DNA of 64,000 bases, taken from Pirellulaceae bacterium. Its GTDB lineage: Bacteria; Planctomycetota; Planctomycetia; Pirellulales; Pirellulaceae. This document shows, one piece after another, positions 43,802 to 60,042 of the stretch. A program made the translations under genes and the position numbers. A model generated the notes under the pieces. It was not told where the DNA came from. It ran no database searches and saw only the letters and a program-made list of their open reading frames with translations. The stretch covers positions 25,558-89,557 of the forward strand of contig JAQWSU010000018.1 in NCBI GenBank assembly GCA_029243025.1. The letters run 5' to 3'. Numbering within the stretch: the stretch's first letter is position 1; every line of letters begins with the position of its first letter.

Positions 43802-43936
43802 TTTCGAAAGCGTTAGATGAGCACCGCATCAAATCCCAAATCTCGCGTGAACCGATCCATCGAGCACATGTTTCCGCACGGTCGGATCTTGTCTAAGACA
43901 AGCGTCTCTTACGCCCCCAACATCTTGCCAGACCGA

Positions 43937-45415
43937 CTACTTCGATTCCTTTTTCGACTTAGACTGTCTTCGCTTTTCTTGCCGTTCAGCGCGTAGACGC
44001 TTACGTCGCAAGCTACGTTCGGAAACAGATGGTTGGGTTTCGACATCGCCAGAATCGATTCGCTTTTGACCGCCAGTAATAGGATCGACCATTTGATCGA
44101 TCCAAGCATCAAAAGCGGTTCTCAACTCGCGAACCCGCCGCGGTTCACGATCCGCAAGGTCCGTCGTCTCCGTTGGGTCTTTTCCCAAATTGATCAGCTC
44201 CAACTTTCCACGACGGTGATGGAGCTTCCAGTCACCCTGACGAACAGCCCATTCATCTTCTTTTCCCTTGCTCCAAAACAAAGTCTCATGATGTCTTGAC
44301 GTCTGATTTGCCAGGAGTGGAAGCAGGCTTTTCCCATCAAATTCGTGCTCCGTTGGAAGACCATCGGTAGCGTCTAGGACCGTCGGTAAAATGTCGAACG
44401 AAATCACCGGCGCGTCAATCGATCGTTTGCCTGCAAACCGTTGGGGCCAACTTACAATCAATGGCGTCCGAATACCACCTTCATCAAGGCTGGATTTAAA
44501 ACCTCGCAACGGTGAGTTGTCGGCACTCATGCCCTTCGCACCACCGTTGTCGGTCAGAAAAAAGAGCAACGTATTATCGAACAGTTCTTCCTGCTGCAGC
44601 TTGTCCACGACCTGACCGACACCATCATCCAGGTGCTTCAACATCGCCATCAAGATCGTCCGCCTCTCACTGAGTTGTGAAAATTCGGCTCGAACCGCAT
44701 CAATGTCAGCTTGAGGAGCCTCAGCCGGCGCGTGGACAGCGTTGTACGCCAGATAGAGAAAAAACGGGCGTTCTTTATTCCGATCAATAAACGCGACCGC
44801 TTCCTCGGTTAGCCGCGTCGTCAGATAACCTTCGTCGTCAATGCGCTGCTTATTACGATAAATGGGGTGAGAAAATTTGGCAGCACCGTCACTGCGAAGA
44901 TCGAAATAACTATGCCCTCCACGCCCCATAAATTTGTAGCACTCATCGAAACCACGATTCATTGCATGCCACTTGAGTCGGGGATAATCATCATCCAAAC
45001 CGAGATGCCATTTTCCAATCGCTGACGAAATATATTCGTCTGGAAGAAATGCCGGAAAGATTTTTTTGCTTGGATCAAAGCCGCGCCCACCGTCACCTGC
45101 CGTATAGACCCCCACGCGTTGTGAATAGCCTCCGATCATTAATCCGGCTCGCGTCGGCGAACAGACATGACCGCTCGTATAAGCTTGCGTAAAAAGCACC
45201 CCTTGCTTGGCGAGTGCGTCCATATTCGGCGTTGAAACCTCAGCAGCATGATGTTCGTTCAAACTGATATCTGCGTAGCCTTGATCGTCGGTCAGAATCA
45301 CCACGATGTTAGGTAAAGACCTACTGTCCGCGGCCAGTTTGGCTGTTGGCAGCATGCTGATGAAAAAAATGAGCAGTGCACGGCGAAAGTCGAGATTCAC
45401 AATCGGTTCCTTCAA
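43937..45415 (-). CDS. Cys-type sulfatase (arylsulfatase family)
   Basis: Signal-like N-terminus. IVVILTDDQGYADIS...TSGHVCSPTRAGLMIGGY (CxPxR formylglycine motif)...GKWHLG...LFFLTDNGG. Confidence 0.93.
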   Translation of the reverse strand: MKEPIVNLDFRRALLIFFISMLPTAKLAADSRSLPNIVVILTDDQGYADISLNEHHAAEVSTPNMDALAKQGVLFTQAYTSGHVCSPTRAGLMIGGYSQRVGVYTAGDGGRGFDPSKKIFPAFLPDEYISSAIGKWHLGLDDDYPRLKWHAMNRGFDECYKFMGRGGHSYFDLRSDGAAKFSHPIYRNKQRIDDEGYLTTRLTEEAVAFIDRNKERPFFLYLAYNAVHAPAEAPQADIDAVRAEFSQLSERRTILMAMLKHLDDGVGQVVDKLQQEELFDNTLLFFLTDNGGAKGMSADNSPLRGFKSSLDEGGIRTPLIVSWPQRFAGKRSIDAPVISFDILPTVLDATDGLPTEHEFDGKSLLPLLANQTSRHHETLFWSKGKEDEWAVRQGDWKLHHRRGKLELINLGKDPTETTDLADREPRRVRELRTAFDAWIDQMVDPITGGQKRIDSGDVETQPSVSERSLRRKRLRAERQEKRRQSKSKKESK

Positions 45416-45453
45416 TAGAACTCATGGAGCAGTCGCTGAAGTCCGTTCGTCGA

Positions 45454-47001
45454 TTACTGCGGCAAACTGACACCCGTCGCCAAGAACTCGACGTCCCGAT
45501 CGTTTTTGATCGGTTGCCCCGGTGTACAACGGCCTTTGCGAACTTGCTCATCCAAAAGCAATAACAACGTGCGCACCTGATCAACTTCTTCGAGCACCAG
45601 ATTCTTGGTTTCGCCTGGATCTTGATCCAAATTGTAGAGTTGCATCGATGGTAATCCTTGCTTTTTCGCTACGGCCTCTCGGGGAGCACTCCATCCACCG
45701 CTGCCACCGCACAGGCACAACTTCCAAGGTCCCTGTCGGATCGCGAATGAACCACCGATTGAATGACTGATCAGCGTTCCCCTCTCAGAGGTCGCCGCAC
45801 CGTTGAACACAGGAGTCAGGTCGTAGCCATCTTCACCACCTACCGCCTGCCTTTCTTGCTCCGTAATTCTTTCCAACGTCGAATACACGTCGGTCAAGCA
45901 TGCCAACGCATTGGTTCGACGTCCCCCTTTGATTTGATCCGGCCAACGCACAATGAATGGGACTCGATGGCCACCTTCATAAATGTCAGCCTTGTGTCCA
46001 CGATAAAGACTGCTGGGCCGATGGCCATTCTTTTCGAGTAGGGGAAAGTTTGCTTCGGGCGAGCAGCCGTTGTCACTGGTAAAAATCACCAGCGTCTGAT
46101 CTTCAAGGCCAGCCTCATCAATCGTCGCAAGTAACTCACCTAGGTGGTGATCCATTTGCATCACGAAATCGGCATAAGGATTCAGTCCACTGGCATCCTT
46201 AAAAGGCGGAACGGGAACGATCGGCGTATGCGGCGCTGGCAACGCCAAATAGAGAAAGAATGGCTGACCTTCTTTCGCCGCTCCGGTTCGCGATTTCACA
46301 TAATCAATGGATTTACCAAAAAGATGAGGTAAAACTTCCGGAATGTTGAAGTCCCCTCCAATCGGCCCTTTGCGATACCAGCCGTACCGATCCTGTTTGC
46401 GAGTGACGCCTTCGACGCGATCCGGCTTAGAGGTAATCCGGCCGGTATCAACCCAAACATAAGGCGGCATGTCCAACGATCCACAATGCGCGTAGTACTG
46501 TTGAAAACCATTGATATCGGGCCCGTTCTTGACGGGCGCGGTAAAATCAATCTGATTTCCGTCCTTCTGCCAATCCCAACCCAGATGCCATTTGCCAATC
46601 ATGGCAGTATGGTAACCTGCTTTCCCCATGAGATGACCTAACGTCGGGCGGCTCTGCGGAATCAAGTGGGAACTCGTCCCACTGAGTACACCTCTGGAAA
46701 GACGGGAACGCCAGTTGTAGCGTCCCGTCAGCAGCCCGTAACGCGTCGGTGTACAAACCGAACTTGGCGTATGAGCGTCCAAAAAGGTTAGCCCCTCATC
46801 TGCCAGCATCTGCAGATGGGGCGTCTTGATCTTGCATTCTGGATTGGTCGGAGACACATCACCAAAACCTAAGTCGTCTGCCATCACGATGATGACGTTC
46901 GGCCTCGCGCCGTACGAACTATTCGCAACGACGGCTGTCAGCAGTAGATTTGGCAAAACCGCGAAGATGAGAAAGCGGATCCTGGGTTTCAGGCTTTTCA
47001 T
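45454..47001 (-). CDS. Cys-type sulfatase (arylsulfatase A family)
   Basis: NVIIVMADDLGFGDVS...SSVCTPTRYGLLTGRY (CxPxR)...GKWHLG...VIFTSDNGC...GHKADIYEGGHRVPFIVRWP. Confidence 0.93.
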   Translation of the reverse strand: MKSLKPRIRFLIFAVLPNLLLTAVVANSSYGARPNVIIVMADDLGFGDVSPTNPECKIKTPHLQMLADEGLTFLDAHTPSSVCTPTRYGLLTGRYNWRSRLSRGVLSGTSSHLIPQSRPTLGHLMGKAGYHTAMIGKWHLGWDWQKDGNQIDFTAPVKNGPDINGFQQYYAHCGSLDMPPYVWVDTGRITSKPDRVEGVTRKQDRYGWYRKGPIGGDFNIPEVLPHLFGKSIDYVKSRTGAAKEGQPFFLYLALPAPHTPIVPVPPFKDASGLNPYADFVMQMDHHLGELLATIDEAGLEDQTLVIFTSDNGCSPEANFPLLEKNGHRPSSLYRGHKADIYEGGHRVPFIVRWPDQIKGGRRTNALACLTDVYSTLERITEQERQAVGGEDGYDLTPVFNGAATSERGTLISHSIGGSFAIRQGPWKLCLCGGSGGWSAPREAVAKKQGLPSMQLYNLDQDPGETKNLVLEEVDQVRTLLLLLDEQVRKGRCTPGQPIKNDRDVEFLATGVSLPQ

Positions 47002-47421
47002 TCGGTGATCTCACTGAAGAATGATAAAGTAAAAAGTCGGTTCGCAGCATTTAAGTTTAGTCTCTCAGGCTGTGATTTGCGACGCTTTGTACTTCGCGAC
47101 CAATCAGCTTGACTCCTAGCGCATCGAAAGGACAAGATCGTTCGCGATGGCCTTCCGAGCAGACACGGTCGATTTGGGCAAGATCGAGCCAAGCATCTAT
47201 CAAGGCATGTAAGGCAACGATCGATGAAGCGATTTCTCTCATCGCCTAGCCATGCGGATCAAATCGCCCCTAAAAAATTTTCATCCCACCGTTGCACAGA
47301 CGACGGCATGACAAGCATGGGATATGATATTGGAGTCTGTATCAAGCATCGATCGGTCGATAGATCTTCGATGCATCAAGTTCAAACGAAATTAATTCCT
47401 GCGTCTTTTCGGAGAAATTCC

Positions 47422-49425
47422 ATGAGACAGGTTTTCTTGTTTTTGCTCGTCGTTAGCTCCGCCTGTTATGGAAAGGTGCACGCCGATAACTTGACTTGTC
47501 TGAGTGACGATGAGCGGCAAAGTGCTGCCCTATATGGGCAACTTCAGCAAAAGGCTTATGCATTACTTGATCGTCGTGACGCGGCCTTCGAACAACTGAA
47601 ATCATCGGCACAGATCCGCGCACACCAACAAAAGCTGAAATCCTTCCTGCTTGAGCAACTGGGCGGTTTTCCGGAACGCACCAGCCTCAATGCACGCACC
47701 GTTCGCAGCATCGAAGCTGACGGCTATCGAATTGAAAATGTAATCTTCACGAGTGTACCCCACCACCATATTACCGCCAATCTATACCTGCCTTCTCAAA
47801 GTGGCCCGGTACCTGGCATCGTGGTTTCGAGTGGTCACAGTCGCACCGGTAAGACAGCTGATTATAACCAGCGTTTTGGCATCATGATGGCCAAACACGG
47901 CATGGCCGCACTTTGTTATGACCCAATCGGACAGGGCGAACGTTCGCAGATTCTCGATTCCGAAGGCGAACCCAAGTTCGGCAGCACCACAACCGAACAT
48001 TTCCTGATGGGAGTTGGTTCGACTCTCGTGGGTCGTAATACGGCCCGATATCGAGTTTGGGATGCGATGCGATCCATTGATTATCTCGCCAGTCGCGCCG
48101 AGGTGGACGCTAATCGAATTGGCTTCACGGGGTGTTCGGGAGGCGGGACATTGACCAGCTATGTGATGGCATTGGACGATCGGGTCGCTTGTGCGGCCCC
48201 GGCTTGTTATCTAACAACGTTTCGTCGATTGATTGAAACGATTGGGCCTCAGGATGCCGAACAAAACATTTTTGGACAACTCGCATTCGGACTCGATCAC
48301 CCAGATTACTTGATCATGCGCGCACCACGCCCAACTCTGATCAGCTCAAACACCGATGACTTCTTCGACATCCAGGGAAGTTGGGCGAACTTCCGTCAGG
48401 CCAAACGCATCTATGGACAACTGGGCTTTCCCGAACGTGTGGACTTAGTCGAGATCGCCGGCAAACATGGCGTCGCCCCTCAAAACTTAGCCACCATCAC
48501 GCATTGGATGAAACGGTGGCTGTTAGCTACCGACCAACCCGTCGCGGCGACCGAACTGGCCGTGCGTCCTGCTCGCGACCTCTGGTGTACTGACACGGGA
48601 CAAATCCTAACCACTTTCCCCAACGAACAATCCGTATTCGAATTGAACGCCCTACACGAGCAAGAGCTGAAGGTCCAGCGAGAAGAAATGTGGAAGACAA
48701 CTGCTCCCGATGCGATGAAAACAAAGATTCGGCAGCTGATTAAGGTGCGGGATGCCTCCGAGATGAAACCACCGGTAGTTGAGGATATCGGTCGGGTCCC
48801 ACGTGAAACCTATCACATTGACAAGCTTGTCTTGCGCACCGATACCGGCGCCACTTTAGCAGGTCTAACCTTGCACCCAGCCGGCCCCTCGGATGACGCC
48901 TATCTTTATTTGCACGACGACGGAAAGATCGGAGACATTCATCCCAACGGCCCGATTGCGGACCTGATGGAAGAAGGGCATGTCGTGATTACCGTTGACT
49001 TGCGCGGTCAAGGTGAGACGGGAAGTCCAAAACGCGATCCCTTACTCACGGACTGGAAGACGTACTATCTCGCCTACTTGCTGGGCAAGCCCCTGCTAGG
49101 AATGAGGGTCGAAGACGCATTGGCAGCCGCCGATTTTGTTGCGTACTATGAAAAGCCCAGAAACGATCCTCGCGAGGTGCATCTGGTCGGCGTTGGACAG
49201 GCTGGCATCATTGCGTTACACGCAGCCGCCTTGCAGCCGCAACTGTTTACATCCGTCACGCTACGCAATGTCCCCAGGGAATGGGCTTCCATCCTGGAAC
49301 AAGAGATTCCAACCGGCAGCCTCGAAAACGCAGTCCATGGCGCACTGACTGTTTACGATTTACCCAACCTCGTGCAACTCATCGGCAACGACAAGGTTCG
49401 TTTCGAACAGCCGCAAACCGACTAA
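47422..49425 (+). CDS. Two-domain alpha/beta hydrolase (carbohydrate-esterase-like), secreted; paralog of 41756-43801
   Basis: GGAGA RBS upstream of the ATG at 47422. Signal MRQVFLFLLVVSSACYGKVHA. FTSVPHHHITANLYLP...SSGHSRTGK...YDPIGQGER...IGFTGCSGGG (GxSxG)...; the second half carries HLVGVGQAGIIALHAAALQ. The track ORF starts at 47224. Confidence 0.78.
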   Translation: MRQVFLFLLVVSSACYGKVHADNLTCLSDDERQSAALYGQLQQKAYALLDRRDAAFEQLKSSAQIRAHQQKLKSFLLEQLGGFPERTSLNARTVRSIEADGYRIENVIFTSVPHHHITANLYLPSQSGPVPGIVVSSGHSRTGKTADYNQRFGIMMAKHGMAALCYDPIGQGERSQILDSEGEPKFGSTTTEHFLMGVGSTLVGRNTARYRVWDAMRSIDYLASRAEVDANRIGFTGCSGGGTLTSYVMALDDRVACAAPACYLTTFRRLIETIGPQDAEQNIFGQLAFGLDHPDYLIMRAPRPTLISSNTDDFFDIQGSWANFRQAKRIYGQLGFPERVDLVEIAGKHGVAPQNLATITHWMKRWLLATDQPVAATELAVRPARDLWCTDTGQILTTFPNEQSVFELNALHEQELKVQREEMWKTTAPDAMKTKIRQLIKVRDASEMKPPVVEDIGRVPRETYHIDKLVLRTDTGATLAGLTLHPAGPSDDAYLYLHDDGKIGDIHPNGPIADLMEEGHVVITVDLRGQGETGSPKRDPLLTDWKTYYLAYLLGKPLLGMRVEDALAAADFVAYYEKPRNDPREVHLVGVGQAGIIALHAAALQPQLFTSVTLRNVPREWASILEQEIPTGSLENAVHGALTVYDLPNLVQLIGNDKVRFEQPQTD

Positions 49426-50415: not shown

Positions 50416-51077
50416 GAAACTCGAACAGAGTGGAAGTAAAAGATAAATCGATCCAATCCTCTTTCAGCCCATGACACCCGGCAATTGTTCTTGAGGCTGA
50501 CATTCACTCGCCGGAGCAACGAGGTTGCTGCTTCCCAAGCGAATGTGGTCACTTTGAAATTTATAGCATCCGCTCGTCACGGTGTGCAATCAAAGCAGTT
50601 CCAGGATTGGCAAAACCTTGCACAACACGTGACAAAGCAAGTTACGGAACAAAAAATCGTTCCGGAGCTTTCCACAACCACTCACCCATCTAGCGACGGA
50701 GACTCCATCTTATCGGATTGGCAAGTCCTGCCAACGCCTAACAACGGTTGAGGCACGAGAAACAGTTTCAGATATCAACGCTTCTCTGTTGATATCGAGA
50801 CCTGCCGATTCGCTACCGACTGCTGTCTCATCAAGGGTTCAATATCCCAATCACCGCAGACCACACACAACCCAACAGGAGAACGCTAATCACTCCCCAC
50901 CAATTAGCTGACTCGGCTCTCCGCCGGCAACACGAAAAGCGATCAAATTTACTGAGCGAGAACGACCGATGTTCGTCGCAAGACTTTATTGACCAGCTTC
51001 GTTATACTGACCGAGAGCTTTCAAATGCTTTCACCAGGAAACATCGCGAGCGATGCCCTATCGCGTATGGAGACGTC

Positions 51078-52412
51078 ATGGCGGGGATATCGAATTACAT
51101 CGAAGCCTGCAAGTTTCGCAAAAACTTCATTAACGAGCAGTTGCAATGGTTACGTGAAGAAGATGGAAAATTTGCAACGGACATCAAGCGTTTGCAAGAT
51201 GTCGAGCAACGAATCCGTCAGGAACTGATCGGCTACCTGCTGCCGGAAATTCAAGACCCTCATCTCGATTCATTAGAGGAGCGCCTGTCCTATTCCGGTC
51301 TGCGACCAATCAAACGGAAATACGACGAAGCATTTGATGCGGCTGAAAAACGACGTGTGGAATTGGAAGCCATGGATGAGTTCCAACATTACGACTTTCT
51401 GATCGATCAAGCGAACCAAGGCGTCGAAGATATTCGGCCCAAATACGAAACAGCCTGCCAGCACATTTCCCTTTGGGAAGGTTCCAAGTGGTTCAAGCAA
51501 CTGAATCAGCGAAAGTATTTTGAACAAGGATACGTCGCTCGCTGGTGGCACACTTTTTTTGATTGGCGAGCGATTTCATTCCTCATGTCGGAATTATCGA
51601 AAAAAGCAAAGCTTAAATTCAACAACCCAGTCAGCCTGAAGCAGCATTATCGCCAACTACGTGACGAAACGAATGACATCGTCGCAGCATACGACAAACG
51701 AGTTGCAGAACGAGATCGCATTCACGGGATTAAGACAGAACATCAAGAACTGTTGAAAGCCCCGGAACGATTGCTCGCCGAGCTATTTAACGAATTGGGT
51801 GGCGCGGCGATTTCCCATCTCGATGCTTGCCCCGAAGATCTGCGCATCGACTTAGCGCGTGGAGACAAGGTCCTGAACGCGTTTCTCCGCAAGCAGACCG
51901 GCGTTCGAAAACAGATTCAGTATTTGCGCGAACTAAGCGTCACTCGCCTCAAGGCGTTGTTCCAGCAATTGAAACAGGATTTGGCAAAGACCGAAGCCAA
52001 GATCAAGAAACTCGAACTGCAAAAACGCCGAGGAAAACGCAAACATTATTACTCAACCGACCTTCAGCGAATGAGAAATGTCAAGACCGATAAATGGGAA
52101 CGGCGACGCGACAAGACGGGCCGTTTACGAAACAAGATTGCTGGGTTTGAGAAATATGATCGAGGTTCGTTCACCAGCGACTACCTTTGGTGGGATTTGA
52201 TCACGGGAGGCTCCGCAGCCGACGACATCTTCGAAGTACGGGACTTTCGCAATCGGAACCCCGAATGGGATCGTTCGAGCTACCGCGATCCAACAGAGGA
52301 TCACGCAACCACTGAAACCACTGAAACCACTGGATATGATGACGCCGCAGAAGACTTGGCAGCATCAATGCTTGACTCCCATGAAGACCACCTATTCGTC
52401 GACCCGAGTTAG
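51078..52412 (+). CDS. Hypothetical coiled-coil protein with a basic Lys/Arg patch and an acidic C-terminal tail; first gene of the radical-SAM operon
   Basis: 444 aa. GGAGAC RBS about 3 nt upstream of the ATG. No TM segment or signal peptide. Long heptad-like segments (LRELSVTRLKALFQQLKQDLAKTEAKIKKLELQKRRGKRKHY). Tail ...TEDHATTETTETTGYDDAAEDLAASMLDSHEDHLFVDPS. I recognise no family. Confidence 0.6.
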   Translation: MAGISNYIEACKFRKNFINEQLQWLREEDGKFATDIKRLQDVEQRIRQELIGYLLPEIQDPHLDSLEERLSYSGLRPIKRKYDEAFDAAEKRRVELEAMDEFQHYDFLIDQANQGVEDIRPKYETACQHISLWEGSKWFKQLNQRKYFEQGYVARWWHTFFDWRAISFLMSELSKKAKLKFNNPVSLKQHYRQLRDETNDIVAAYDKRVAERDRIHGIKTEHQELLKAPERLLAELFNELGGAAISHLDACPEDLRIDLARGDKVLNAFLRKQTGVRKQIQYLRELSVTRLKALFQQLKQDLAKTEAKIKKLELQKRRGKRKHYYSTDLQRMRNVKTDKWERRRDKTGRLRNKIAGFEKYDRGSFTSDYLWWDLITGGSAADDIFEVRDFRNRNPEWDRSSYRDPTEDHATTETTETTGYDDAAEDLAASMLDSHEDHLFVDPS

Positions 52413-52429
52413 GCCGGGGAACGAGACCA

Positions 52430-54220
52430 ATGCCTGAACCGAAAACCATCGTCTGTTATGCCATTAATGGCTCCGGCCTCGGCCATTTGACCCGTCTGAC
52501 AGCAGTCGCAAAATGGATCCGTCGATACGTGGCGTTACTCGATTGTCGCCCACCTGAGATCCTCTTTCTGACCTCCAGCGACGCCAGTGACTTACTCGCC
52601 GATGCTCGCTTCGCGGCATTCAAGATTCCCAGCAAAACCGTGGCCGTACGGTCCGAATTAAACAAGTCAGAATACAAACGCCTGGCCAAACATTTCGTCT
52701 GGAACACGTTGGGTGTGTTTTCACCCAATCTTCTCGTAGTCGACACCTTTCCATCGGGTAGCTTTGATGAGCTATTCCAAATCCTGGATGGCCCGTTCAA
52801 GAAGAGCTTCATCTTTCGAGATGTAAAGTCCGAGTACGCCGCTCGGCCAATGTTTCGTGCGGCGATCAGCTTGTTCGATAAGGTAGTTTCACCCCATCGT
52901 CGGCGCGACAGCACAACCCAAGTGGCTGCCCCCGGAGATTGCACCTACACCGGCGAGGTGGTGCAATTTGAACGAGAGGAATTGCTGCCGCGTTCTATGG
53001 GTCGAGAACAATTGGGCATTGCAGATCATCAACGATTGGTTTATTTGAGTGCAGGAGGCGGAGGCGATCCGAACGCTGAAGAGACCTTAAGGTCGCTCGT
53101 CAATGCGTTTCGCTCCCAGGACGACATCCACCTTCTGGTGGGCGCAGGCCCCCTTTATCGCGGACAACGTTTGGCCAGCCCCAACCTGACCTGGTTCGAT
53201 TCTCCCGCCGTCTGGCGATACTTCGGAACGATCGATGCAGCAATCAGCGCGGGCGGCTACAACTCGTTCCACGAACTTTTGTTTGCTCGAGTGCCCACAG
53301 CATTTTTTTCGCAAGCGAAAATCGCCGATGATCAACAGCAAAGAATTCGTAATGCAGTGCAACACGGCGCATGCCAGGAGATTTCCACGCCCCAAAATAC
53401 CGACTTGGTGATCAAAACGACGAGGGAACTTCTCGACGAAGAGATTACTGCGCGAATCCGATCTGCCTGTGATAATTGGATACCCGAAAACGGCGCACGG
53501 CAATGTGCCATTGAACTCTTAAGCCCCCTTTATGACGCGAAACAATTGGATTGGGCATCAAATGTATTGTCTCCCGCTCTGACTCATGCCTTGGAACGTA
53601 TCAATGGTGGCACGACCGGCGCGCTGGCCGACTGGCTTACGCCCCTTGCGCCACAAGAACAGTTCCAGTCTCTCAAGAACCACTCCGGACTGAACGACAT
53701 CATGCGACACTTGTCGCCAGCGGCTGCCCATGAAGTCGAGCAAATACTCGCGAAAGAAAAGGTCCACTCATCGCATTTCAAATTCGAAGCGACGCTGCTG
53801 GATCTGTTAAACACGATTCAATCAGCAGCAGCCGCACTGGGCGTTCCTGCTCGACAACTGGCCGAGGAATCACTAAAAACTCTCAACTCCGCGATCAAAA
53901 AACAACCACCACTCGCCAAGCAGAACAACCAGCAAACACCGTGGGCGTGCGAAGTGATCAAAACGGTCCGCTTCCTGCTCACCCTTTCCATTTCCGACTG
54001 TTCTGCATTCGATATCCTGCAAATGTTTCGCATCTTCCCTCGTGTCGTCGACGTCAACGTCGGAGAGGCCGGTATGCTTTTCGAGCATTTCATGAGACAC
54101 CGCATCGCGATGGGTGACCTTCCGCACGCCATTCTGCAACAGATTCAACTGCTCAAGGTCTTAGACACAAAAATAACTCGCGAAAGACTGGAATCGATCA
54201 CAGAAGGAATTTCGACATGA
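52430..54220 (+). CDS. GT-B fold glycosyltransferase (MurG/GT28-like, about 370 aa) fused to an uncharacterised C-terminal helical domain of about 220 aa
   Basis: IVCYAINGSGLGHLTRLTAVAKWI (the G-x-G-x-GH..R N-terminal motif of MurG/GT1-type enzymes). ...VYLSAGGGG...IDAAISAGGYNSFHELLFARVPTAFF is a C-terminal nucleotide-sugar binding motif. The stop overlaps the next start (ATGA at 54217-54220). Confidence 0.7.
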   Translation: MPEPKTIVCYAINGSGLGHLTRLTAVAKWIRRYVALLDCRPPEILFLTSSDASDLLADARFAAFKIPSKTVAVRSELNKSEYKRLAKHFVWNTLGVFSPNLLVVDTFPSGSFDELFQILDGPFKKSFIFRDVKSEYAARPMFRAAISLFDKVVSPHRRRDSTTQVAAPGDCTYTGEVVQFEREELLPRSMGREQLGIADHQRLVYLSAGGGGDPNAEETLRSLVNAFRSQDDIHLLVGAGPLYRGQRLASPNLTWFDSPAVWRYFGTIDAAISAGGYNSFHELLFARVPTAFFSQAKIADDQQQRIRNAVQHGACQEISTPQNTDLVIKTTRELLDEEITARIRSACDNWIPENGARQCAIELLSPLYDAKQLDWASNVLSPALTHALERINGGTTGALADWLTPLAPQEQFQSLKNHSGLNDIMRHLSPAAAHEVEQILAKEKVHSSHFKFEATLLDLLNTIQSAAAALGVPARQLAEESLKTLNSAIKKQPPLAKQNNQQTPWACEVIKTVRFLLTLSISDCSAFDILQMFRIFPRVVDVNVGEAGMLFEHFMRHRIAMGDLPHAILQQIQLLKVLDTKITRERLESITEGIST

Positions 54221-55353
54221 GCATTACGGAAAGGATTGCCACAAACGTCAAGCAAACGGATCGCGAGCGACGACTTCAGGGGATTCTTTCGAATCGCCCT
54301 TCGTTTGGACCACAAACCGTTCATTTCGACATCGCAAATGGCTGTAATGTCCGCTGTACCACCTGCTGGCACCACAGTCTTCACCTTCATGAAATCCACA
54401 CCCCGTCGATGGAATGGAAACGACAATCCATGTCCTTCGCAACTTTCCAAACCATCATGGAGGACCTGCTAAGACTCGGCGGCCTCGAACAAATCATTTT
54501 ATCCGGCATGGGTGACCCATCGCTGAATAACGAACTCATCACCATGGTTCAGTTTGCCCATCACCACAACATTGGTGTCACGATTATCACCAATCTGCTG
54601 ACCGTTGACCTGCCTGTCTTGCTCGACAGCGACGGTGAACTGAATCTATTGGTTTCTATTTGCGGCGTCACGGAAACCGTTTGGGAGGAATTTCACGGGG
54701 GATCATTCGCCGGCGGATTTAACAAACTGTTGAAACAATTAGAGATCTTGCGAAACGCTCGCTTTCAACCCAAACATGTTCAAGTCATCAATGGACAAAA
54801 TTACCATCAATTGCCCGACATGGTCCGATTCGCCGCAGAATGGCCCACCCAACGAATCAACTTCAAGTTCGCATCGCTAGTCAACGGGACAGAAGCAGTC
54901 GGACTCAACAAGCAACAAAAGCTGGAGTTACTGGAAGAACTCATCCCCCGGGCCAAGGCAATCTCGCAATTCAAAGGTATCGTCACCGACCTCGATGCTT
55001 TTCAAACACAAGTTTCACTCTGCTCGCATCGCACATCCCCCATTGAAGAAGTTGGCTGCTACATGGGGACGATCTACTGTCGAATCACCGTCGACAATGA
55101 ACTGCTCTATTGTTGCAATACCGACATCTCAGTAGGTCACATTGACGACAACACAAGTTTCCAGCAACTGTGGGAAGGTGAAAAATATGCCGAGATGAGG
55201 TCTCGACTTGGACGTGGTGATTTTTTCGAAAGCTGTCAGCAATGCGGCAAATACAAACAGAATCTGAAGTGGGCCGATAAACTCCACAAATTGCAGCGCG
55301 AATCGCAACCGCCTACGAGCGATCCCCGTTCACTACCCGAGGCCGTCGAATGA
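54217..55353 (+). CDS. Radical SAM enzyme with C-terminal auxiliary Cys cluster (partial SPASM/twitch-like)
   Basis: FDIANGCNVRCTTCWHH (CxxxCxxC), ILSGMGDPSLN (GGE-like). C-terminal CYMGTIYCRITVDNELLYCCNTD...FFESCQQCGKY. Confidence 0.85.
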   Translation: MSITERIATNVKQTDRERRLQGILSNRPSFGPQTVHFDIANGCNVRCTTCWHHSLHLHEIHTPSMEWKRQSMSFATFQTIMEDLLRLGGLEQIILSGMGDPSLNNELITMVQFAHHHNIGVTIITNLLTVDLPVLLDSDGELNLLVSICGVTETVWEEFHGGSFAGGFNKLLKQLEILRNARFQPKHVQVINGQNYHQLPDMVRFAAEWPTQRINFKFASLVNGTEAVGLNKQQKLELLEELIPRAKAISQFKGIVTDLDAFQTQVSLCSHRTSPIEEVGCYMGTIYCRITVDNELLYCCNTDISVGHIDDNTSFQQLWEGEKYAEMRSRLGRGDFFESCQQCGKYKQNLKWADKLHKLQRESQPPTSDPRSLPEAVE

Positions 55354-56345
55354 GCGTTACAGATTGGGCACGATCGTTGGCCAAGCGGCACCGTCGACCG
55401 AGACGCGATCCACCGCAACCCCCATTCCCCGACTTACAACCGACTGTCGAGTGGCAGGTAAATGGATTCTGCAACTACGACTGCACCTATTGCATTCAGT
55501 CCGCGAAATCACGCGTGGGGGTGCCAACAGATTCAACGGTGCGATCCATCGTGACTGAATTTGCAAAGCTACCCGGAGTCTGGGAAATCAAGATGTCCGG
55601 TGGCGAGCCTTTCGCCTTTAAAGGTTTTGTCAATTCGGTGATCCCACAACTCACCGAACGTACGCGTCACTTGATTTCAGTGCTGACCAACTTCTCGGCC
55701 CCAATCGACGTACTGGAAAAGTTCTGCCAGCTAACCGCGGATCGACTCAGAATCACAAGTGCCAGTCTGCATCCGGACAGTACTTCAGCGGAAGATTTCA
55801 TTGAGAAAGCGATCGCTTATCGCGAATTGCGACAGCGGTACAACCCAGCCAGCTCTTTCGTTGTGAACGTGGTGCTCGTGCCGGGTTACGTTGCGAATCA
55901 CGTGAAATATCGCGATCAAATTGAAGCAGCCGGGCTGCGATATTTCCCTCAGCTCATGAAAATCAAGGGCGGTGTTTACCCCTACCCCCCAACCGAAATG
56001 GCCCTCATTGAACAGCTCACCCATGGCAGCCACGATCCCAGCAAGGTAAACCGATCCCCCAATTACCAAGGCCTGCATTGCGAGGCAGGAGTCTGGTATT
56101 TCACCGTTGATCAAACGGGTGAAGCGTTCAGTTGCCGCACCGGAAAACGTTTCCTGGCTGAAAACGATCAAGCCCGATTAGGGAATCTCACTCAGGGCAC
56201 CTTCCAGTTACGAAAACAAGGGGGACCGTGCCCTTACACAATCTGTCCTTGCACGGTCCCAGTCAATCGTGGCATCGTCCGTCTTCCCAACCAAGAGCGT
56301 CAACAACTGATCTTGAGGAAAGCGAGCGAGAACAATGAGCATTGA
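55350..56345 (+). CDS. Radical SAM enzyme (paralog A) with C-terminal Cys motif
   Basis: VNGFCNYDCTYCIQS (CxxxCxxC), KMSGGEPFAF, ISVLTNFS. C-terminal CEAGVWYFTVDQTGEAFSCRTG...GGPCPYTICPCTVPVNRG. ATGA overlap with the upstream gene. Confidence 0.85.
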   Translation: MSVTDWARSLAKRHRRPRRDPPQPPFPDLQPTVEWQVNGFCNYDCTYCIQSAKSRVGVPTDSTVRSIVTEFAKLPGVWEIKMSGGEPFAFKGFVNSVIPQLTERTRHLISVLTNFSAPIDVLEKFCQLTADRLRITSASLHPDSTSAEDFIEKAIAYRELRQRYNPASSFVVNVVLVPGYVANHVKYRDQIEAAGLRYFPQLMKIKGGVYPYPPTEMALIEQLTHGSHDPSKVNRSPNYQGLHCEAGVWYFTVDQTGEAFSCRTGKRFLAENDQARLGNLTQGTFQLRKQGGPCPYTICPCTVPVNRGIVRLPNQERQQLILRKASENNEH

Positions 56346-57270
56346 CGCTTGGCTGCAACAACGAAGCACACCGCAAACCGAAGCAACCCTACTCGGCCGA
56401 CGCATTACGGGTGTTGTCAGCTGGAACATGAACGACTCCTGCAATTACCGCTGTTCGTATTGCACACAACGTCACATGCCTGACCGCACCGGTACGCTCG
56501 AGGAAATCGAACAAACACTTCTCGCTTTTTCTACTCTGCCGGGGCATTGGGAGTTTAAGCTCAGCGGCGGTGAACCGTTCCAACAACCGGGACTCGATGC
56601 AATCGTTTCAGGATTGGTCGCCATGGGACATTGCATCTCGGTACAAACCAATTTTTCTGCCAATGAATCGCGTTTGCTTTCCTTTCTGGAGGCAACACGT
56701 GGTGCACTCAATCTCTTTTCAGCAAGCTTGCACCTGGAATATGCCGATGCCCGATCGTTTCTTGACAAATACCAGATCGTTCAACCCTTTGAAAAAGATG
56801 GCCTTCGCTTCCACATTACGACGGTTGGTGTGCCGGACCGACTGGTGCAAATCCGAGACGAAATCGAGCCATTTTTTCGCAAACACAATCTGGTTTTCAA
56901 AGTACAACCAGAAAAGGTGGGGGGCTATTTACGCGACTATTCACCCGAACAGAAACAAATCCTGCTGGAATTAGGCGGGCACAACCAAACGGGCCGAATT
57001 GCACACAATTTCCAAGGCAAGTTATGTCATTCCGGAACAAATTACATTGTGATCAAATCAACGGGCGAAGCATTTCGCTGTTATCCGGCGAGCCGGGTAG
57101 GCGGACAATTCGCTCGACTCGGCTCATTAAGTGAAGGCATCACATTACTCGATGGGGCGAGAATCTGCCCCTACACTTACTGCAACTGCACTGTCCCCAT
57201 TCAAAGAGGCATGATTGAAGGCGTTAGCCACGACCTGCAAACCACAACAAAGGAAACCGATGTTCATTAG
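56335..57270 (+). CDS. Radical SAM enzyme (paralog B) with C-terminal Cys motif
   Basis: MNDSCNYRCSYCTQR (CxxxCxxC), KLSGGEPFQQ, ISVQTNFS. C-terminal CHSGTNYIVIKSTGEAFRCYPA...ARICPYTYCNCTVPIQRG. 11-nt overlap with the upstream gene. Confidence 0.85.
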   Translation: MSIDAWLQQRSTPQTEATLLGRRITGVVSWNMNDSCNYRCSYCTQRHMPDRTGTLEEIEQTLLAFSTLPGHWEFKLSGGEPFQQPGLDAIVSGLVAMGHCISVQTNFSANESRLLSFLEATRGALNLFSASLHLEYADARSFLDKYQIVQPFEKDGLRFHITTVGVPDRLVQIRDEIEPFFRKHNLVFKVQPEKVGGYLRDYSPEQKQILLELGGHNQTGRIAHNFQGKLCHSGTNYIVIKSTGEAFRCYPASRVGGQFARLGSLSEGITLLDGARICPYTYCNCTVPIQRGMIEGVSHDLQTTTKETDVH

Positions 57271-58147
57271 CTATCAAAATGTTCGCAATGCGATGCTTGG
57301 AACGCTAGGAGCAGCGGTCGCCGGCGTGGCTGCGTTCTTTGGATTCCAAAATCCTGATACCAGCGAACTCAAACCCTCGCCTTCGAAAACCGTGCAACTT
57401 GCCGACCTACCTGCCCCCCAGGACAAGCCAAAGTCAGTGGCGTCACCTGCCAAATCACAAGTCAATGCCAGCAAGTCGCCCGGATCGGGTGCACCCAGGC
57501 CAACCTCAACCACGCCAAACCAGTCCCCTAACCAAGGTCGCCCAATAACAACCGCTGACCAATATCGCCATGCCATGACCTTCGCGACGGCAAAGGCGGA
57601 TTCAAGTGGCAAAGGCAAAGACGTGCTGGGGCAATCAAGCCCTTGGAAATTAAATCTGTATGACGACAACAAAGACGGACAGTGGGATCGAGGCAAGCTG
57701 GATACTAATCGAGATGAGCTTGACGACGAAAAATGGAACTTCAAAAACGGATCCTGGGAAAAGGACGGTGGGAAAACCGTTTGGTCCGGAAACAAATGGA
57801 GGCAGAAGGCGGAGGCTGCACCGAATGAATTGCTGGGGGCAAATCCCGTAGCGAATCAACCTCAATCAACAAGTGACCATCTTCAGGATCGCTATCGCAA
57901 AGCGATGAAGATTGCCACACAGGCAGCTGACCCAAGCGGCAAAGGGAAAGACGTGCTCGGCCCGTCGAGCCCGTGGAAGCTGAACCTGTACGACGACGAC
58001 AAAGATGGCAAGTGGGACCGAGGCAAGCTAGATACCAATCGGGATGAAATTGACGACGAAAAGTGGAATTTCAAACGAGGACGTTGGGAAAAAGATGGTG
58101 GCGCCACCGAATGGAAAGATGACCGCTGGATTCCCAGCAAAACGTAA
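57260..58147 (+). CDS. Membrane-anchored or secreted protein with a Pro/Ser-rich linker and two copies of an ~83-aa Asp/Trp/Lys-rich module spaced 110 aa apart (DxDxDG Ca-binding-like)
   Basis: AGGAAA RBS upstream of the ATG at 57260, which overlaps the rSAM stop by 11 nt. MFISYQNVRNAMLGTLGAAVAGVAAFFG is a TM or signal segment, followed by the linker. Then two copies of SGKGKDVLG.SSPWKLNLYDD.KDG.WDRGKLDTNRDE.DDEKWNFK.G.WEKDGG. The track start is 57215. Confidence 0.7.
   Translation: MFISYQNVRNAMLGTLGAAVAGVAAFFGFQNPDTSELKPSPSKTVQLADLPAPQDKPKSVASPAKSQVNASKSPGSGAPRPTSTTPNQSPNQGRPITTADQYRHAMTFATAKADSSGKGKDVLGQSSPWKLNLYDDNKDGQWDRGKLDTNRDELDDEKWNFKNGSWEKDGGKTVWSGNKWRQKAEAAPNELLGANPVANQPQSTSDHLQDRYRKAMKIATQAADPSGKGKDVLGPSSPWKLNLYDDDKDGKWDRGKLDTNRDEIDDEKWNFKRGRWEKDGGATEWKDDRWIPSKT
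57557..58135 (+). repeat. Intragenic direct duplication (two ~250-bp copies, 330-bp period)
   Basis: Copy 1 at 57557-57805 and copy 2 at 57887-58135 encode near-identical 83-aa modules (aa 115-197 and 225-307 of the track ORF). Confidence 0.85.
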
Positions 58148-58500
58148 AGAACAGAGGTACCTCGCCACATCCCTACCGACTTCCCGGAAAACACGACAGC
58201 TATTTCCCAGAACATCGTCATTCTTATCGCAGCAGGAAACGGCTCACACCGGCGCAGATCAGCACCACAGCTTTACTCCATGTGATGGTTATCAAAAAAT
58301 GACGACCATGCTTGCCTTTTCCCGTCGTGCAGCCAGCGATCGCATCAGTAGCTGCTGTCCTCGCTAACGATTTCCTGAGAAACAGCTTCGAAACAAACAA
58401 GACCTACCCCAGACGCTTTACTCCCGAATCGCGACCACCTACCATGGCGTCACAGAAGTTATCAACGATTCCTGAGTTCTTGTTTGGAGGGAGAAATCTT

Positions 58501-59085
58501 ATGCGAAGAATTTGCACAACGCTTTTCACCACAACCCTGATCGCAACCCTTGCCGTTGCGGCTAGCAAGCCTGCTTCCGCAGCTGATGAGTATGATTACG
58601 ACCTAGTCCATTCATCGGTGAGCTTCAAAGCAAGACATCTCGACATCAGCTGGATTCATGGTCGATTCAATGACGTCGAGGGCAAATTCTCCATCGATCG
58701 TGAAAACCCAGAAAATTCTACGTTTGCGATCACGATCAAGACCGACAGTGTCGACACGGCCAACGAAGCACGTGACGAACACCTCCGGCAACCTGATTAC
58801 TTTGACACAAAGCAATTTCCAACGATTGAATTTAAGAGCACCGACGTCAAACCGATCAAAGATGGGTTCGAGGTGACCGGTGACTTCACCATGCACGGCA
58901 CGACTCGAAAAGTCACGATTGTCCTCATGGGAGGCAAGGAACATAAATTCGGGAAGACGAAACGAGTTGCCTTCTCAACTGAACTTGCACTCAAACGCAG
59001 TGACTATGGTTTTGACAAAAATGCCATTGGACCGATCGGAGATGAAGCGCTGATCATGATTGACTGTGAAGGCGTGAGCAAATAG
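58501..59085 (+). CDS. YceI-family periplasmic (polyisoprenoid-binding-like) protein
   Basis: GGAGGGAG RBS upstream of the ATG at 58501. Signal MRRICTTLFTTTLIATLAVAASKPASA. YDLVHSSVSFKARHLDISWIHGRFNDVEGKFSID...TIEFKSTDV...VTGDFTMHGTTRKVT is the classical YceI pattern. The track start is 58312. Confidence 0.9.
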   Translation: MRRICTTLFTTTLIATLAVAASKPASAADEYDYDLVHSSVSFKARHLDISWIHGRFNDVEGKFSIDRENPENSTFAITIKTDSVDTANEARDEHLRQPDYFDTKQFPTIEFKSTDVKPIKDGFEVTGDFTMHGTTRKVTIVLMGGKEHKFGKTKRVAFSTELALKRSDYGFDKNAIGPIGDEALIMIDCEGVSK

Positions 59086-59088
59086 CCA

Positions 59089-60042
59089 ATGCCCGATCCG
59101 CTCTTGTATCTCAAGGCGATGATAGCCGCCTCCATCGTCAGCGCCATCACGATGCTGACGATGGTCAAACTACGACGGAGCGCAAGCCAAACCTGGTTGA
59201 ATTCGGCAGCTGTCCTGGCAATCGGTCTCGGACTCACAGTTGGCTATTCCGTGCTGGCATTTCGATGGATCTGGCCACCCGCGAACGGTCTTGACCGTTT
59301 TTTGACGCTGGTCATTCCAGCCGTTCTCGCGATCGAATTGATTGCAGGATTTCAACAGATCCCAACCTGGACGGCTTGGGTATTACGAATCATTCTCGCT
59401 GGCACCATACCGAGAATTTTGCTGCACGGTTCGGTTTATTTGAATAGCGAGATGACCGATTCAGCAGCGTGGCAACTTGGCACCGTGCTGGCCCTTTGCG
59501 TGGCATTAGCGGTTGGTTTGTGGTGGCTGCTCTCCTGGCTATCAGTTCGATCACCCAGCATATCGATTTCCATGACGGTCTCGCTGGCAACCCAAGGTGC
59601 CGGCTTGGCAATCATGCTGTCCGGTTATATCAAAGGCGGGGCCGCTGCCTTTCCATTGGTTGCAACGGTCATCACAACGACGATCATGGCCCAACTGCTG
59701 ACGTGGCACATCAGAGAGCCCACCCGTTTGGTCTCCCCAACTGCTAGTCTTGGGATCGGACTCGTGAGTTTGTGCAGCTTGCTGCTGATCGGGTGCTTTT
59801 TTGGTCGACTCTCAACCAGCTCAGCACTCGTAATCTTGCTCGCCCCCCTGCTTTGCTGGATGACTGAATTTTCGCCGTTGCGGCAATTGAACCCATGGCT
59901 CGCGGGCTCAATTCAAATCGCACTCGTGACGATTCCGCTGCTGGGGGTCCTGGCAGTTGAGAAACACCAGTTTGACCGCGAAATGCTCCCCTTGTTGAGC
60001 ATCGTTCGGATCCAAGATGGCCTACCACATTCTCGGAACTGA
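59089..60042 (+). CDS. Polytopic membrane protein, function unknown (co-transcribed with yceI-like gene)
   Basis: 317 aa with about 9 hydrophobic helices. The start lies 3 nt after the YceI stop. Confidence 0.55.
   Translation: MPDPLLYLKAMIAASIVSAITMLTMVKLRRSASQTWLNSAAVLAIGLGLTVGYSVLAFRWIWPPANGLDRFLTLVIPAVLAIELIAGFQQIPTWTAWVLRIILAGTIPRILLHGSVYLNSEMTDSAAWQLGTVLALCVALAVGLWWLLSWLSVRSPSISISMTVSLATQGAGLAIMLSGYIKGGAAAFPLVATVITTTIMAQLLTWHIREPTRLVSPTASLGIGLVSLCSLLLIGCFFGRLSTSSALVILLAPLLCWMTEFSPLRQLNPWLAGSIQIALVTIPLLGVLAVEKHQFDREMLPLLSIVRIQDGLPHSRN

Follow-up and report, generated by a model that had tools for sequence, protein, structure and literature searches.

Paired paralogous radical S-adenosylmethionine (radical SAM) enzymes are found in conserved, uncharacterised cassettes such as STM4011-STM4015 and HxsABCD, and an acidic, flexible C-terminus carries a group between enzymes in the LysW amino-group carrier and in the pearlin scaffolds (TglA). 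In the mycofactocin cluster, a peptide that is highly conserved at its extreme C-terminus is encoded together with a radical SAM enzyme and a glycosyltransferase (PMC3023750), and the C-terminal Ser/Thr of pilins is O-glycosylated by TfpO and TfpM, which transfer glycans en bloc from lipid-linked precursors (PMC9829042). Here we describe a six-gene cassette, g1 to g6, from a Pirellulaceae bacterium (GenBank assembly GCA_029243025.1), located at positions 51078-58147 of a 64,000-nucleotide stretch of contig JAQWSU010000018.1 (positions 25,558 to 89,557, forward strand; below, the window). Like the mycofactocin cluster, it joins radical SAM enzymes (g3-g5) and a putative glycosyltransferase (GT, g2) to a candidate product with a conserved C-terminus (g1), and, as with the TfpO/TfpM substrates, the last residue of that candidate is Ser or Thr. 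The sixth gene, g6, encodes a predicted membrane-anchored repeat protein.

Gene order and the C-terminus of g1

The six genes follow each other on one strand at such close quarters that the sequence-only reading took them for a single co-translated unit. The junction sequences agree exactly with the spacings it gave, namely a 17-nt gap at g1/g2, ATGA overlaps of 4 nt at the next two junctions (g2/g3, g3/g4) and overlaps of 11 nt at the last two (g4/g5, g5/g6), and a purine-rich stretch lies ahead of each start codon in the unit. The reading frame of g6 is open in the 5′ direction as far as a TTG at 57215; since all homologues start with MFIxYQxVRN, the ATG at 57260 is its likely start.

The same arrangement recurs in distant lineages. 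One genome per species was scanned (185,579 genomes), 521 of which carry a g2 relative, and the best 80 of these 521 g2-bearing loci were analysed. Represented among them are metagenome-assembled genomes (MAGs) of Pirellulaceae, Myxococcota/Polyangia, Acidobacteriota, Gloeobacterales, Ozemobacteraceae, Eremiobacterota/Xenobia, Actinomycetota, Treponemataceae, Burkholderiales, Clostridia, Bacteroidota and Ignavibacteria. By tblastn mapping, the order g1-g2-g3-g4-g5-g6 on one strand was recovered wherever the contig was long enough, and a g5-seeded metagenome scan gave the same order. It is present in about 45 independent loci whose flanks are unrelated to one another, and its conservation reaches beyond the Planctomycetota to more than 10 phyla. 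Such a recurrent order is far beyond chance and, on this comparative evidence, the six genes are one functional unit. The cross-phylum synteny and the unrelated flanks, together with the null searches of curated collections, the PDB and the literature given below, support the earlier proposal of a co-translated unit that fits no pathway that can be named.

The unit is modular, as g1 and g2 occur without radical SAM genes and g3-g6 occur without g1 and g2. In 57 loci the sequence extends 4.5 kb or more beyond g2; of these, the full radical SAM triad is present in 45, all of which also have g6 (45/45), a partial set in 3, and no radical SAM gene in 9. Directly 5′ of g2 stands g1 in 70 of 72 loci, and a divergent g1 occupies this place in L081. 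In L071 (Bacteroidota) and L084 (Ignavibacteria) the arrangement is g1-g2-g6, with no radical SAM gene found there. We read the cassette as two modules, A comprising (g0)-g1-g2 and B comprising g3-g4-g5-g6, where g0 is a small gene present in some loci (see below).

That g1 had matched nothing recognisable was borne out, since it belongs to no Pfam, NCBIfam, PADLOC or PHROGs family. AlphaFold models it as an elongated bundle, all-alpha, that runs out into a disordered acidic tail (predicted local distance difference test, pLDDT, 88.7). A Foldseek search with this model gave nothing significant in the PDB or in BFVD (best E of 0.02 and 0.003; TM-score <0.25), the resemblances to BAR and SMC-type coiled coils being weak and below significance. 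An exhaustive hidden Markov model search of 1.84 billion proteins gave 276 representative clusters, nearly all of 405-490 amino acids, and a fused domain was present in none of these 276 representatives; by a word-based search, the g1 clusters number only 32, all from Planctomycetota. Within the Planctomycetota, K308, R318, K336, K339, W340 and R351 are conserved. Of the full-length representatives of the whole family, 120 of 128 carry xWW[DSYE]. The pLDDT falls below 50 at residues 409-422 and 432-444. Across phyla the tails vary in length and sequence; they are acidic, in many cases with abundant Ala, His or Tyr, and disorder is predicted for them.

From the ends of these variable tails, a common terminus stands out. 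A terminal [DE]-x-[ST] was found in 126 of the 128 full-length g1 representatives, whose mutual identity is below 50%, with Ser as the last residue in 124 and Thr in 2, and likewise in 75 of 77 g1 proteins from the fetched loci. The preceding residue is usually hydrophobic, and the endings include DPS, DAS, DGS, DVS, EVS and DFS. As a background, the same terminus was seen in 9 of 549 flanking non-g1 open reading frames (ORFs) and in 0 of 237 ORFs of the distant radical SAM arrays described below, and none of g2, g3, g4 and g6 ends in this way. The terminal [D/E]-x-S is tied to g2, because cassettes lacking the radical SAM genes keep the motif. This terminus is the strongest clue to the function of g1, which had been called a structural protein and is probably not merely that.

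A variant four-gene cassette (L127:4191-9556, L136, L137 and L139) leads to the same motif from another side. It encodes a tail protein, a 362-residue GT-only version of g2 (g2′), a twitch/SPASM radical SAM enzyme (g3′) and one g4/g5-like radical SAM enzyme (g4′); it thus has two radical SAM enzymes, and g6 is absent. The tail protein carries a signal peptide, TPR, a transmembrane (TM) segment, a coiled coil and a zinc ribbon, and ends in D-H-S in 4 of 4 copies. Homology between this protein and g1 was considered and rejected (hhalign probability 0.2%). As an unrelated protein in the position of g1 thus ends in D-H-S beside g2′, the motif travels with the GT and not with the fold of the carrier. 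g2′ retains 56 of the 78 family-invariant positions of g2, including most of those in the N-terminal half. In L127, two small ORFs (98 and 99 amino acids) come next after the variant cassette; they look toxin-antitoxin-like by eye only, without a family search.

The enzymes and the predicted membrane-anchored protein g6

All six proteins were searched against Pfam, NCBIfam (June 2026), PADLOC-DB v2 and PHROGs at the curated cut-offs, above which only the generic Radical_SAM (g3-g5) and SPASM (g3) models were found. PHROGs gave generic radical SAM matches only, and PADLOC only generic N-terminal matches to pVip, with g1, g2 and g6 matching nothing above noise, so that the cassette corresponds to no known defence system in that collection. 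Searches of the PDB by single sequence and by profile gave partial, weak matches to radical SAM enzymes and MurG only, and no description of the cassette was found in the literature collection searched, which is incomplete.

The MurG/GT28-like motifs that had been noted in g2 are present and nearly invariant. In residues 1-365, 78 positions are at least 90% conserved across 71 homologues, among them those in NGSGLGHLTR, FK(I/L)PSK, VVDTFPSGSF.EL, SAGGGGD and AGGYNSFHEL (AGGYN..HE across homologues). With a g2 profile, partial and weak matches were obtained in the PDB to the C-terminal half of MurG (E 3e-4) and that of YjiC-type UGTs (E up to 0.03). The NCBIfam matches are also weak (TIGR01133, 12.8 bits against a cut-off of 250.25; TIGR01426, 16 against 260), and Pfam gave no GT match, FAM180 appearing below cut-off only, although PF04101 is present in some g2 homologues. 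With scores below cut-off and a context of g1 and radical SAM genes, g2 does not qualify as a MurG (GT28) enzyme; since its nucleotide-sugar-binding motifs are intact, it looks like an active GT. The family is large, with at least 398 clusters in several phyla. Plasmid-borne relatives were also considered and set aside, as they were only generic GTs of 22-28% identity, the best being an uninformative Priestia plasmid GT located by spore-coat genes.

Some 220 residues of g2 had been left unassigned. This C-terminal extension gave only weak profile matches, to designed helical bundles and vinculin, and it is missing from g2′; as judged from the alignment, it is a poorly conserved helical stretch common to the whole family, in which no fused domain can be recognised.

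The three middle proteins are clearly of the radical SAM superfamily, with PF04055 scores of 33.9, 39.7 and 37.1 bits for g3, g4 and g5 against a cut-off of 29.5. Their CX3CX2C motifs (g3, CNVRCTTC, 54343-54366; g4, CNYDCTYC, 55470-55493; g5, CNYRCSYC, 56440-56463), GGEP-type motifs and C-terminal cysteines, which had all been noted beforehand, are present and at least 90% conserved among 49-57 homologues. g3 passes PF13186 (SPASM; 30.3 bits against 21.5), but the domain is really a four-cysteine one of twitch type. The full seven-cysteine SPASM pattern (C-x2-C-x5-C-x3-C, two auxiliary clusters) is not present in g3, which has C340-x2-C343 only, and C281, C299/C300, C340 and C343 align with four cysteines of the C-terminal auxiliary-cluster region of BtrN, which we take to be its twitch-domain ligands. 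Owing to this match and to the missing x5-C-x3-C part, g3 should be of twitch type with one auxiliary cluster. The C-x17-C spacing of its auxiliary region also opens those of g4 and g5, which are paralogous to each other (35% identity). By their conserved cysteines, then, all three proteins carry the ligands of a predicted twitch-type auxiliary cluster.

No curated subfamily takes in any of the three. The best NCBIfam match of g3 is TIGR04317 (73 bits against a cut-off of 380); the MftC model TIGR03962 (48.8 against 265) and the PqqE model TIGR02109 (23.2 against 381) also score below cut-off, so that g3 belongs to neither of the latter. For g4 and g5, the best model is NF038073 (the STM4011 family), which is matched over nearly its full length but at only 39.5 and 56.2 bits against a cut-off of 200; the sole STM4011 paper found was unrelated, and this resemblance adds nothing on function. 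The pVip model NF038283 was matched at 28-31 bits against a cut-off of 180, only over 85-110 N-terminal model positions (the PADLOC models PDLC02903/4 likewise), well short of membership. In the PDB, the g3 profile is nearest to PqqE, BlsE and BtrN (30-40 bits), with SkfB and Tes also matched, and the g5 profile matches viperin, PqqE, BlsE and MoaA (24-36 bits) in the N-terminal half of the core only. For most of the nearest solved relatives, the substrate is a sugar or nucleoside ring (BtrN, BlsE, viperin, MoaA) or a peptide (PqqE). Since the CX3CX2C motifs and the auxiliary cysteines are kept, g3-g5 look like active enzymes.

Distant relatives of g4 and g5 (24-32% identity) are also found in tandem arrays (L148:59-11492, L146, L150, L153, L157 and L160). 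L148 has about 11 consecutive ORFs on one strand, the first four of which are confirmed by Pfam as radical SAM genes, and a further eight stretches have tblastn matches to g4/g5. Among the confirmed genes are one for a SPASM radical SAM enzyme fused to TPR and one for a B12-binding radical SAM enzyme with TPR.

Like g1, g6 had been left without a recognised relative. It has no Pfam or NCBIfam family, the Pfam families for calcium binding included, and its model has no Foldseek neighbour in the PDB (best E 0.2). AlphaFold predicts an N-terminal helix, a disordered Pro/Ser-rich linker and two repeat domains (pLDDT 92-98). Each repeat has DxDxDG-like loops, YDDNKDGQWD and DTNRDELDDE, that are conserved in the family, and many Trp residues are invariant. 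Homologues have 1-5 repeats, and the stub is conserved across phyla. From its basic stub and TM helix, g6 is predicted to be an N-in signal anchor with the stub in the cytoplasm and the repeats outside it; the repeats may bind calcium or a glycan.

Table 1. Positions in the window of the six genes and of features within them
Feature	Position	Strand	Size or residues	Basis
g1	51078-52412	+	444 amino acids	ORF call
g1 basic patch, K/R-rich, last long helices	51987-52142	+	residues 304-355	sequence
g1 LWWD motif	52185-52196	+	residues 370-373	at least 95% conserved in 72 homologues, many phyla
g1 disordered acidic tail, end V-D-P-S-COOH	52302-52409	+	residues 409-444	AlphaFold, motif counts
g2	52430-54220	+	596 amino acids	ORF call
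g2 predicted GT-B core, MurG/GT28-like	52430-53524	+	residues 1-365	conserved motifs, profile match
g2 C-terminal extension	53525-54220	+	about 230 amino acids	almost no conserved columns past residue 365
g3	54217-55353	+	378 amino acids	ORF call
g3 radical SAM, auxiliary cysteines	55057-55245	+	C281, C299, C340, C343	conservation, BtrN alignment
g4	55350-56345	+	331 amino acids	ORF call
g4 auxiliary cysteines	within 55350-56345	+	C244, C262, C294, C299, C301	at least 90% conserved
g5	56335-57270	+	311 amino acids	ORF call
g5 auxiliary cysteines	within 56335-57270	+	C231, C249, C278, C283, C285	at least 90% conserved
g6	57260-58147	+	295 amino acids	ORF call
g6 N-terminal stub MFISYQNVRN	57260-57289	+		conserved across phyla
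g6 TM helix	57290-57349	+		single-pass; Pro/Ser-rich linker next
g6 repeat domains, helix plus six strands	57551-57805, 57866-58135	+	about 85-90 amino acids each	AlphaFold

Possible functions of the cassette

We tentatively propose, as a possibility that still falls short of probable, that g2 glycosylates the C-terminal Ser of g1, that the radical SAM enzymes tailor the sugar or the terminus, and that g6 couples the system to the envelope. The cassette would then encode a two-module, probably membrane-associated protein-maturation system. In it, g1 would be a long helical scaffold that bears a basic patch and, on a flexible acidic tail, exposes the ending hydrophobic-[D/E]-x-Ser-COOH; g2 would recognise this terminus and most likely move a sugar from a nucleotide-sugar donor to the terminal Ser. 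With one twitch-type auxiliary Fe-S cluster each, g3-g5 would perform 5′-deoxyadenosyl radical chemistry either on the donor sugar before transfer or on the glycosylated terminus after it. Anchored in the membrane with its repeats outside, g6 would link the cytoplasmic machinery to the envelope through its cytoplasmic stub. While gene order, modularity, motif conservation, the intact catalytic motifs and the lack of a known family or fold for g1 and g6 are shown by the sequences and models, we infer here the tail as acceptor, the targets of the radical SAM enzymes, the orientation, role and ligand of g6, and what the system is for.

Were the tail indeed the substrate, this would be a new post-translational chemistry, cytoplasmic glycosylation of a C-terminal Ser with three radical SAM steps, present in more than 10 phyla, and functions would follow for three unassigned radical SAM subfamilies, a GT-B subfamily and two families without a Pfam or fold match. 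The invariant [D/E]-x-S terminus makes the substrate question directly testable. In a bolder form, which we consider unlikely, g1 would found a new class of ‘C-terminal handle’ proteins, on whose terminal Ser a cytoplasmic GT-B enzyme and three twitch-type radical SAM enzymes build a glycosyl-derived group. D-x-S-COOH, grafted onto unrelated proteins as well, would be a portable tag and g6 an envelope-side partner; the product would then be a cofactor, signal or anchor tethered to a protein, for which no counterpart is known.

Several points weigh against glycosylation of the g1 terminus. A conserved C-terminal tip on a disordered acidic tail may be a docking peptide, as in SSB and FtsZ, and the acceptors of MurG/GT28 relatives are usually lipids or small molecules. 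The matches of the radical SAM enzymes to solved structures are weak (24-40 bits, in the N-terminal half of the core), and their substrate class can therefore not be read from them. The strict link between the triad and g6 (45/45) is not explained by a model centred on the tail, and g6 could itself be the radical SAM substrate; in L105, moreover, g3-g6 stand with neither g1 nor g2 nearby. In the variant tail protein an Ala/Gly-rich hydrophobic stretch lies ahead of the tail, which would be extracytoplasmic if this stretch spans the membrane. Finally, all cluster members inspected come from MAGs or metagenomes, with no cultured host among them.

The docking of the tip and the usual acceptors of MurG-like enzymes lead to a different account, one that we judge rather unlikely, in which the radical SAM enzymes and g2 build a metabolite, nucleotide sugar, glycolipid or cofactor, g1 is a scaffold at the membrane whose tip docks g2, and g6 anchors or senses. 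It draws on the likeness of g2 to MurG/GT28 and to macrolide-type GT1 enzymes with lipid or small-molecule acceptors, on solved radical SAM relatives that include BtrN, BlsE, viperin, MoaA and the lipid synthase Tes, on the elongated g1 bundle with its basic patch and weak BAR/SMC-type likeness, on the tight gene coupling, which suggests a stoichiometric complex, and on the 2-oxoacid:ferredoxin oxidoreductase (POR) genes near some loci. Against it, no conserved transporter, flippase, nucleotidyltransferase or sugar-activating gene is found in the cassette or its flanks. An invariant last residue on two unrelated partners is also what one would sooner expect of a substrate or modification site than of a generic docking peptide, and the acceptor-side half of g2 is very strongly conserved across phyla, in keeping with a single invariant acceptor, or also with a universal lipid. 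If g1 were such a scaffold, the cassette would still point to an undescribed pathway for a metabolite or glycolipid in Planctomycetota, Myxococcota and Acidobacteriota, whose envelopes and lipids are known to be unusual.

The 45/45 link would be accommodated if the radical SAM triad instead matures g6, by RiPP-like (ribosomally synthesised and post-translationally modified peptide) or cross-linking chemistry on its Trp/Lys/Asp-rich repeats or on its stub, with g1 and g2 as a separate, co-regulated module. This we hold to be improbable. g6 is rarely found other than with the triad, the g3-g6 block of L105 stands without module A, the number of repeats, like that of repeat-type precursors, is variable (1 to 5), the distant g4/g5 relatives beside TPR-fused radical SAM enzymes hint at protein or peptide substrates, and paired radical SAM enzymes with a repeat protein recall the uncharacterised HxsABCD, although the HxsC matches are weak. 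On the other hand, the g6 domains are confidently folded (pLDDT 92-98) with largely invariant Trp, Asp and Gly, g6 has no cysteines, and its predicted N-in topology puts the repeats outside the cytoplasm. The variant cassette has two radical SAM enzymes and no g6, while the g1-g2-g6 loci L071 and L084 have g6 where no radical SAM gene was found. The signs of a RiPP cluster are also missing: as the sequence-only reading had it, there is no obvious short precursor, since a short-ORF check of the leader and flanks gave no conserved small ORF; no protease, transporter or exporter recurs in the flanks or the cassette, and no RiPP recognition element (RRE) was found in a general Pfam scan of the six proteins, no search aimed at RRE having been made. 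As for an anti-phage or conflict system, in which viperin- or MoaA-like radical SAM enzymes would modify nucleotides or sugars and g1 and g6 would be sensor or membrane parts, we think it highly improbable. The patchy distribution (521/185,579) and unrelated flanks, as after horizontal transfer, the weak N-terminal matches to pVip models and viperin structures, the one locus by a Mu-like prophage and the one variant by toxin-antitoxin-like ORFs read by eye would fit it. Yet the pVip matches cover only the generic cluster-binding region and lie far below family level, no other PADLOC model is matched, and the flanks hold metabolic and envelope genes and not defence islands; no viral contig carries a g2 relative, the cassette has no nuclease, protease, NTPase or kinase, its guanine-plus-cytosine (GC) content equals that of the surrounding chromosome, and there are no tRNA genes in the window.

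Genomic surroundings and comparison with described systems

Upstream of g1, the leader of roughly 660 bp reported beforehand is real (662 bp, 50416-51077), but its length is not conserved, as the gap upstream of g1 is only about 110-160 nt in related loci. The gap is divergent, with a minus-strand EamA-like gene on its other side. Neither an Rfam match nor a conserved small ORF was found in it, and promoter- or terminator-like sites are no commoner in it than in shuffled sequence. For these reasons a riboswitch or precursor region was ruled out, and the region is not counted within the six-gene feature. On the other side of the cassette, a gene for a YceI-like periplasmic protein (58312-59085; PF04264, E 1e-42) and one for a 317-residue polytopic membrane protein (59089-60042) follow g6 on the same strand. 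They were considered as further members and rejected, as they do not recur beside the cassette elsewhere; they are probably a separate unit.

The rest of the 64-kb window looks like an ordinary Pirellulaceae-type chromosome with sulfatases, esterases, glycosyltransferases and PGI, and no mobile-element family was matched among the ORFs scanned. At 9839-12298 it encodes a protein of 819 residues that combines three Lamin Tail Domains with a type I dockerin domain, which is unusual in a secreted planctomycete protein. At 41756-49425, two sulfatase genes (43937-45415 and 45454-47001) are enclosed by genes for large double alpha/beta-hydrolase/acetyl-xylan-esterase-like proteins, one on each side (41756-43801 and 47224-49425). 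The cluster has the look of a locus for degradation of a sulfated polysaccharide, unrelated to the cassette.

Around the related loci, the small gene g0 is found in 29 (for example L045:6364-6687 and L061:2656-2985), only in the clade with a shorter g2, and is absent from the window. It encodes about 110 residues with the pattern LDG(F/Y/W)D..(R/K)(V/I)G(F/Y)E(F/Y)(I/L)T.EAGDR, its stop overlaps the start of g1 as ATGA, and no Pfam or PHROGs family was found for it. In two clades, 2-oxoacid:ferredoxin oxidoreductase genes (POR_N, TPP_enzyme_C, POR) adjoin the cassette (L009:15778-18254, L035, L039 and L074), lying upstream of g0 in the last three; these enzymes could supply the radical SAM reductant. 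GAF-adenylate/guanylate cyclases lie 1.3-3 kb from the cassette in 7 loci. In L007:15370-21461 the cassette directly adjoins a Mu-like prophage, with a run of small genes on the minus strand and a transposase of Mu type (HTH_Tnp_Mu_1, rve, Mu-transpos_C), and in L046:8716-11826, L114:3487-7035 and L120:2567-7785 it contains 3-5 kb of unrelated DNA (at g3/g4 or g2/g3), which suggests insertions that split the unit.

Compared with the mycofactocin system, to which g3 adds a further likeness through its weak full-length match to the MftC model, the candidate product differs greatly in size, since MftA is a peptide of about 23-30 residues and g1 a folded protein of 444. The mycofactocin glycosyltransferase is a group-2 enzyme (PF00535), whereas g2 is GT-B-like, and the single radical SAM enzyme there has the full C-x2-C-x5-C-x3-C pattern, in contrast to the three twitch-type enzymes here. 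The putative mycofactocin-binding protein, the creatininase-family protein and the FMN-dependent dehydrogenase of that cluster have no equivalent in the cassette. TfpO and TfpM are polytopic membrane proteins that act in the periplasm. They share with our system the terminal Ser/Thr (in the g1 family, Ser in 124/128 and Thr in 2/128), but g2 looks like a soluble-type GT-B enzyme, with nucleotide-sugar motifs and no sequence kinship to them, and they work without radical SAM enzymes.

With MurG/GT28 and the GT1 enzymes (MGT, EryCIII-like), g2 has in common the N-terminal G-x-G-H..R loop, the Gly-rich second loop and the C-terminal nucleotide-sugar motif; the extension of about 230 residues, the pairing with g1 and the lack of a cell-wall or antibiotic cluster set it apart. 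g4 and g5 are paired paralogues as in STM4011-STM4015 and HxsABCD, yet g1, g2 and g6 match none of the other family models of those cassettes. The auxiliary cysteines of g3 align with those of BtrN, and the N-terminal cores of g4 and g5 are nearest to viperin, BlsE, MoaA and PqqE; the matches to BtrN, viperin, BlsE and MoaA are, however, of 19-40 bits over partial domains, with unaligned substrate-binding regions, and no equivalog model is reached. As far as can be compared from descriptions, LysW and TglA are small carriers without sequence similarity to g1, and they depend on a ligase (ATP-grasp or PEARL) and on a peptidase for release, which have no counterpart here. Taken together, the architecture, the two orphan proteins g1 and g6 and the putative C-terminal handle appear to have no described counterpart, while the enzyme superfamilies on which the cassette draws are in part known ones.

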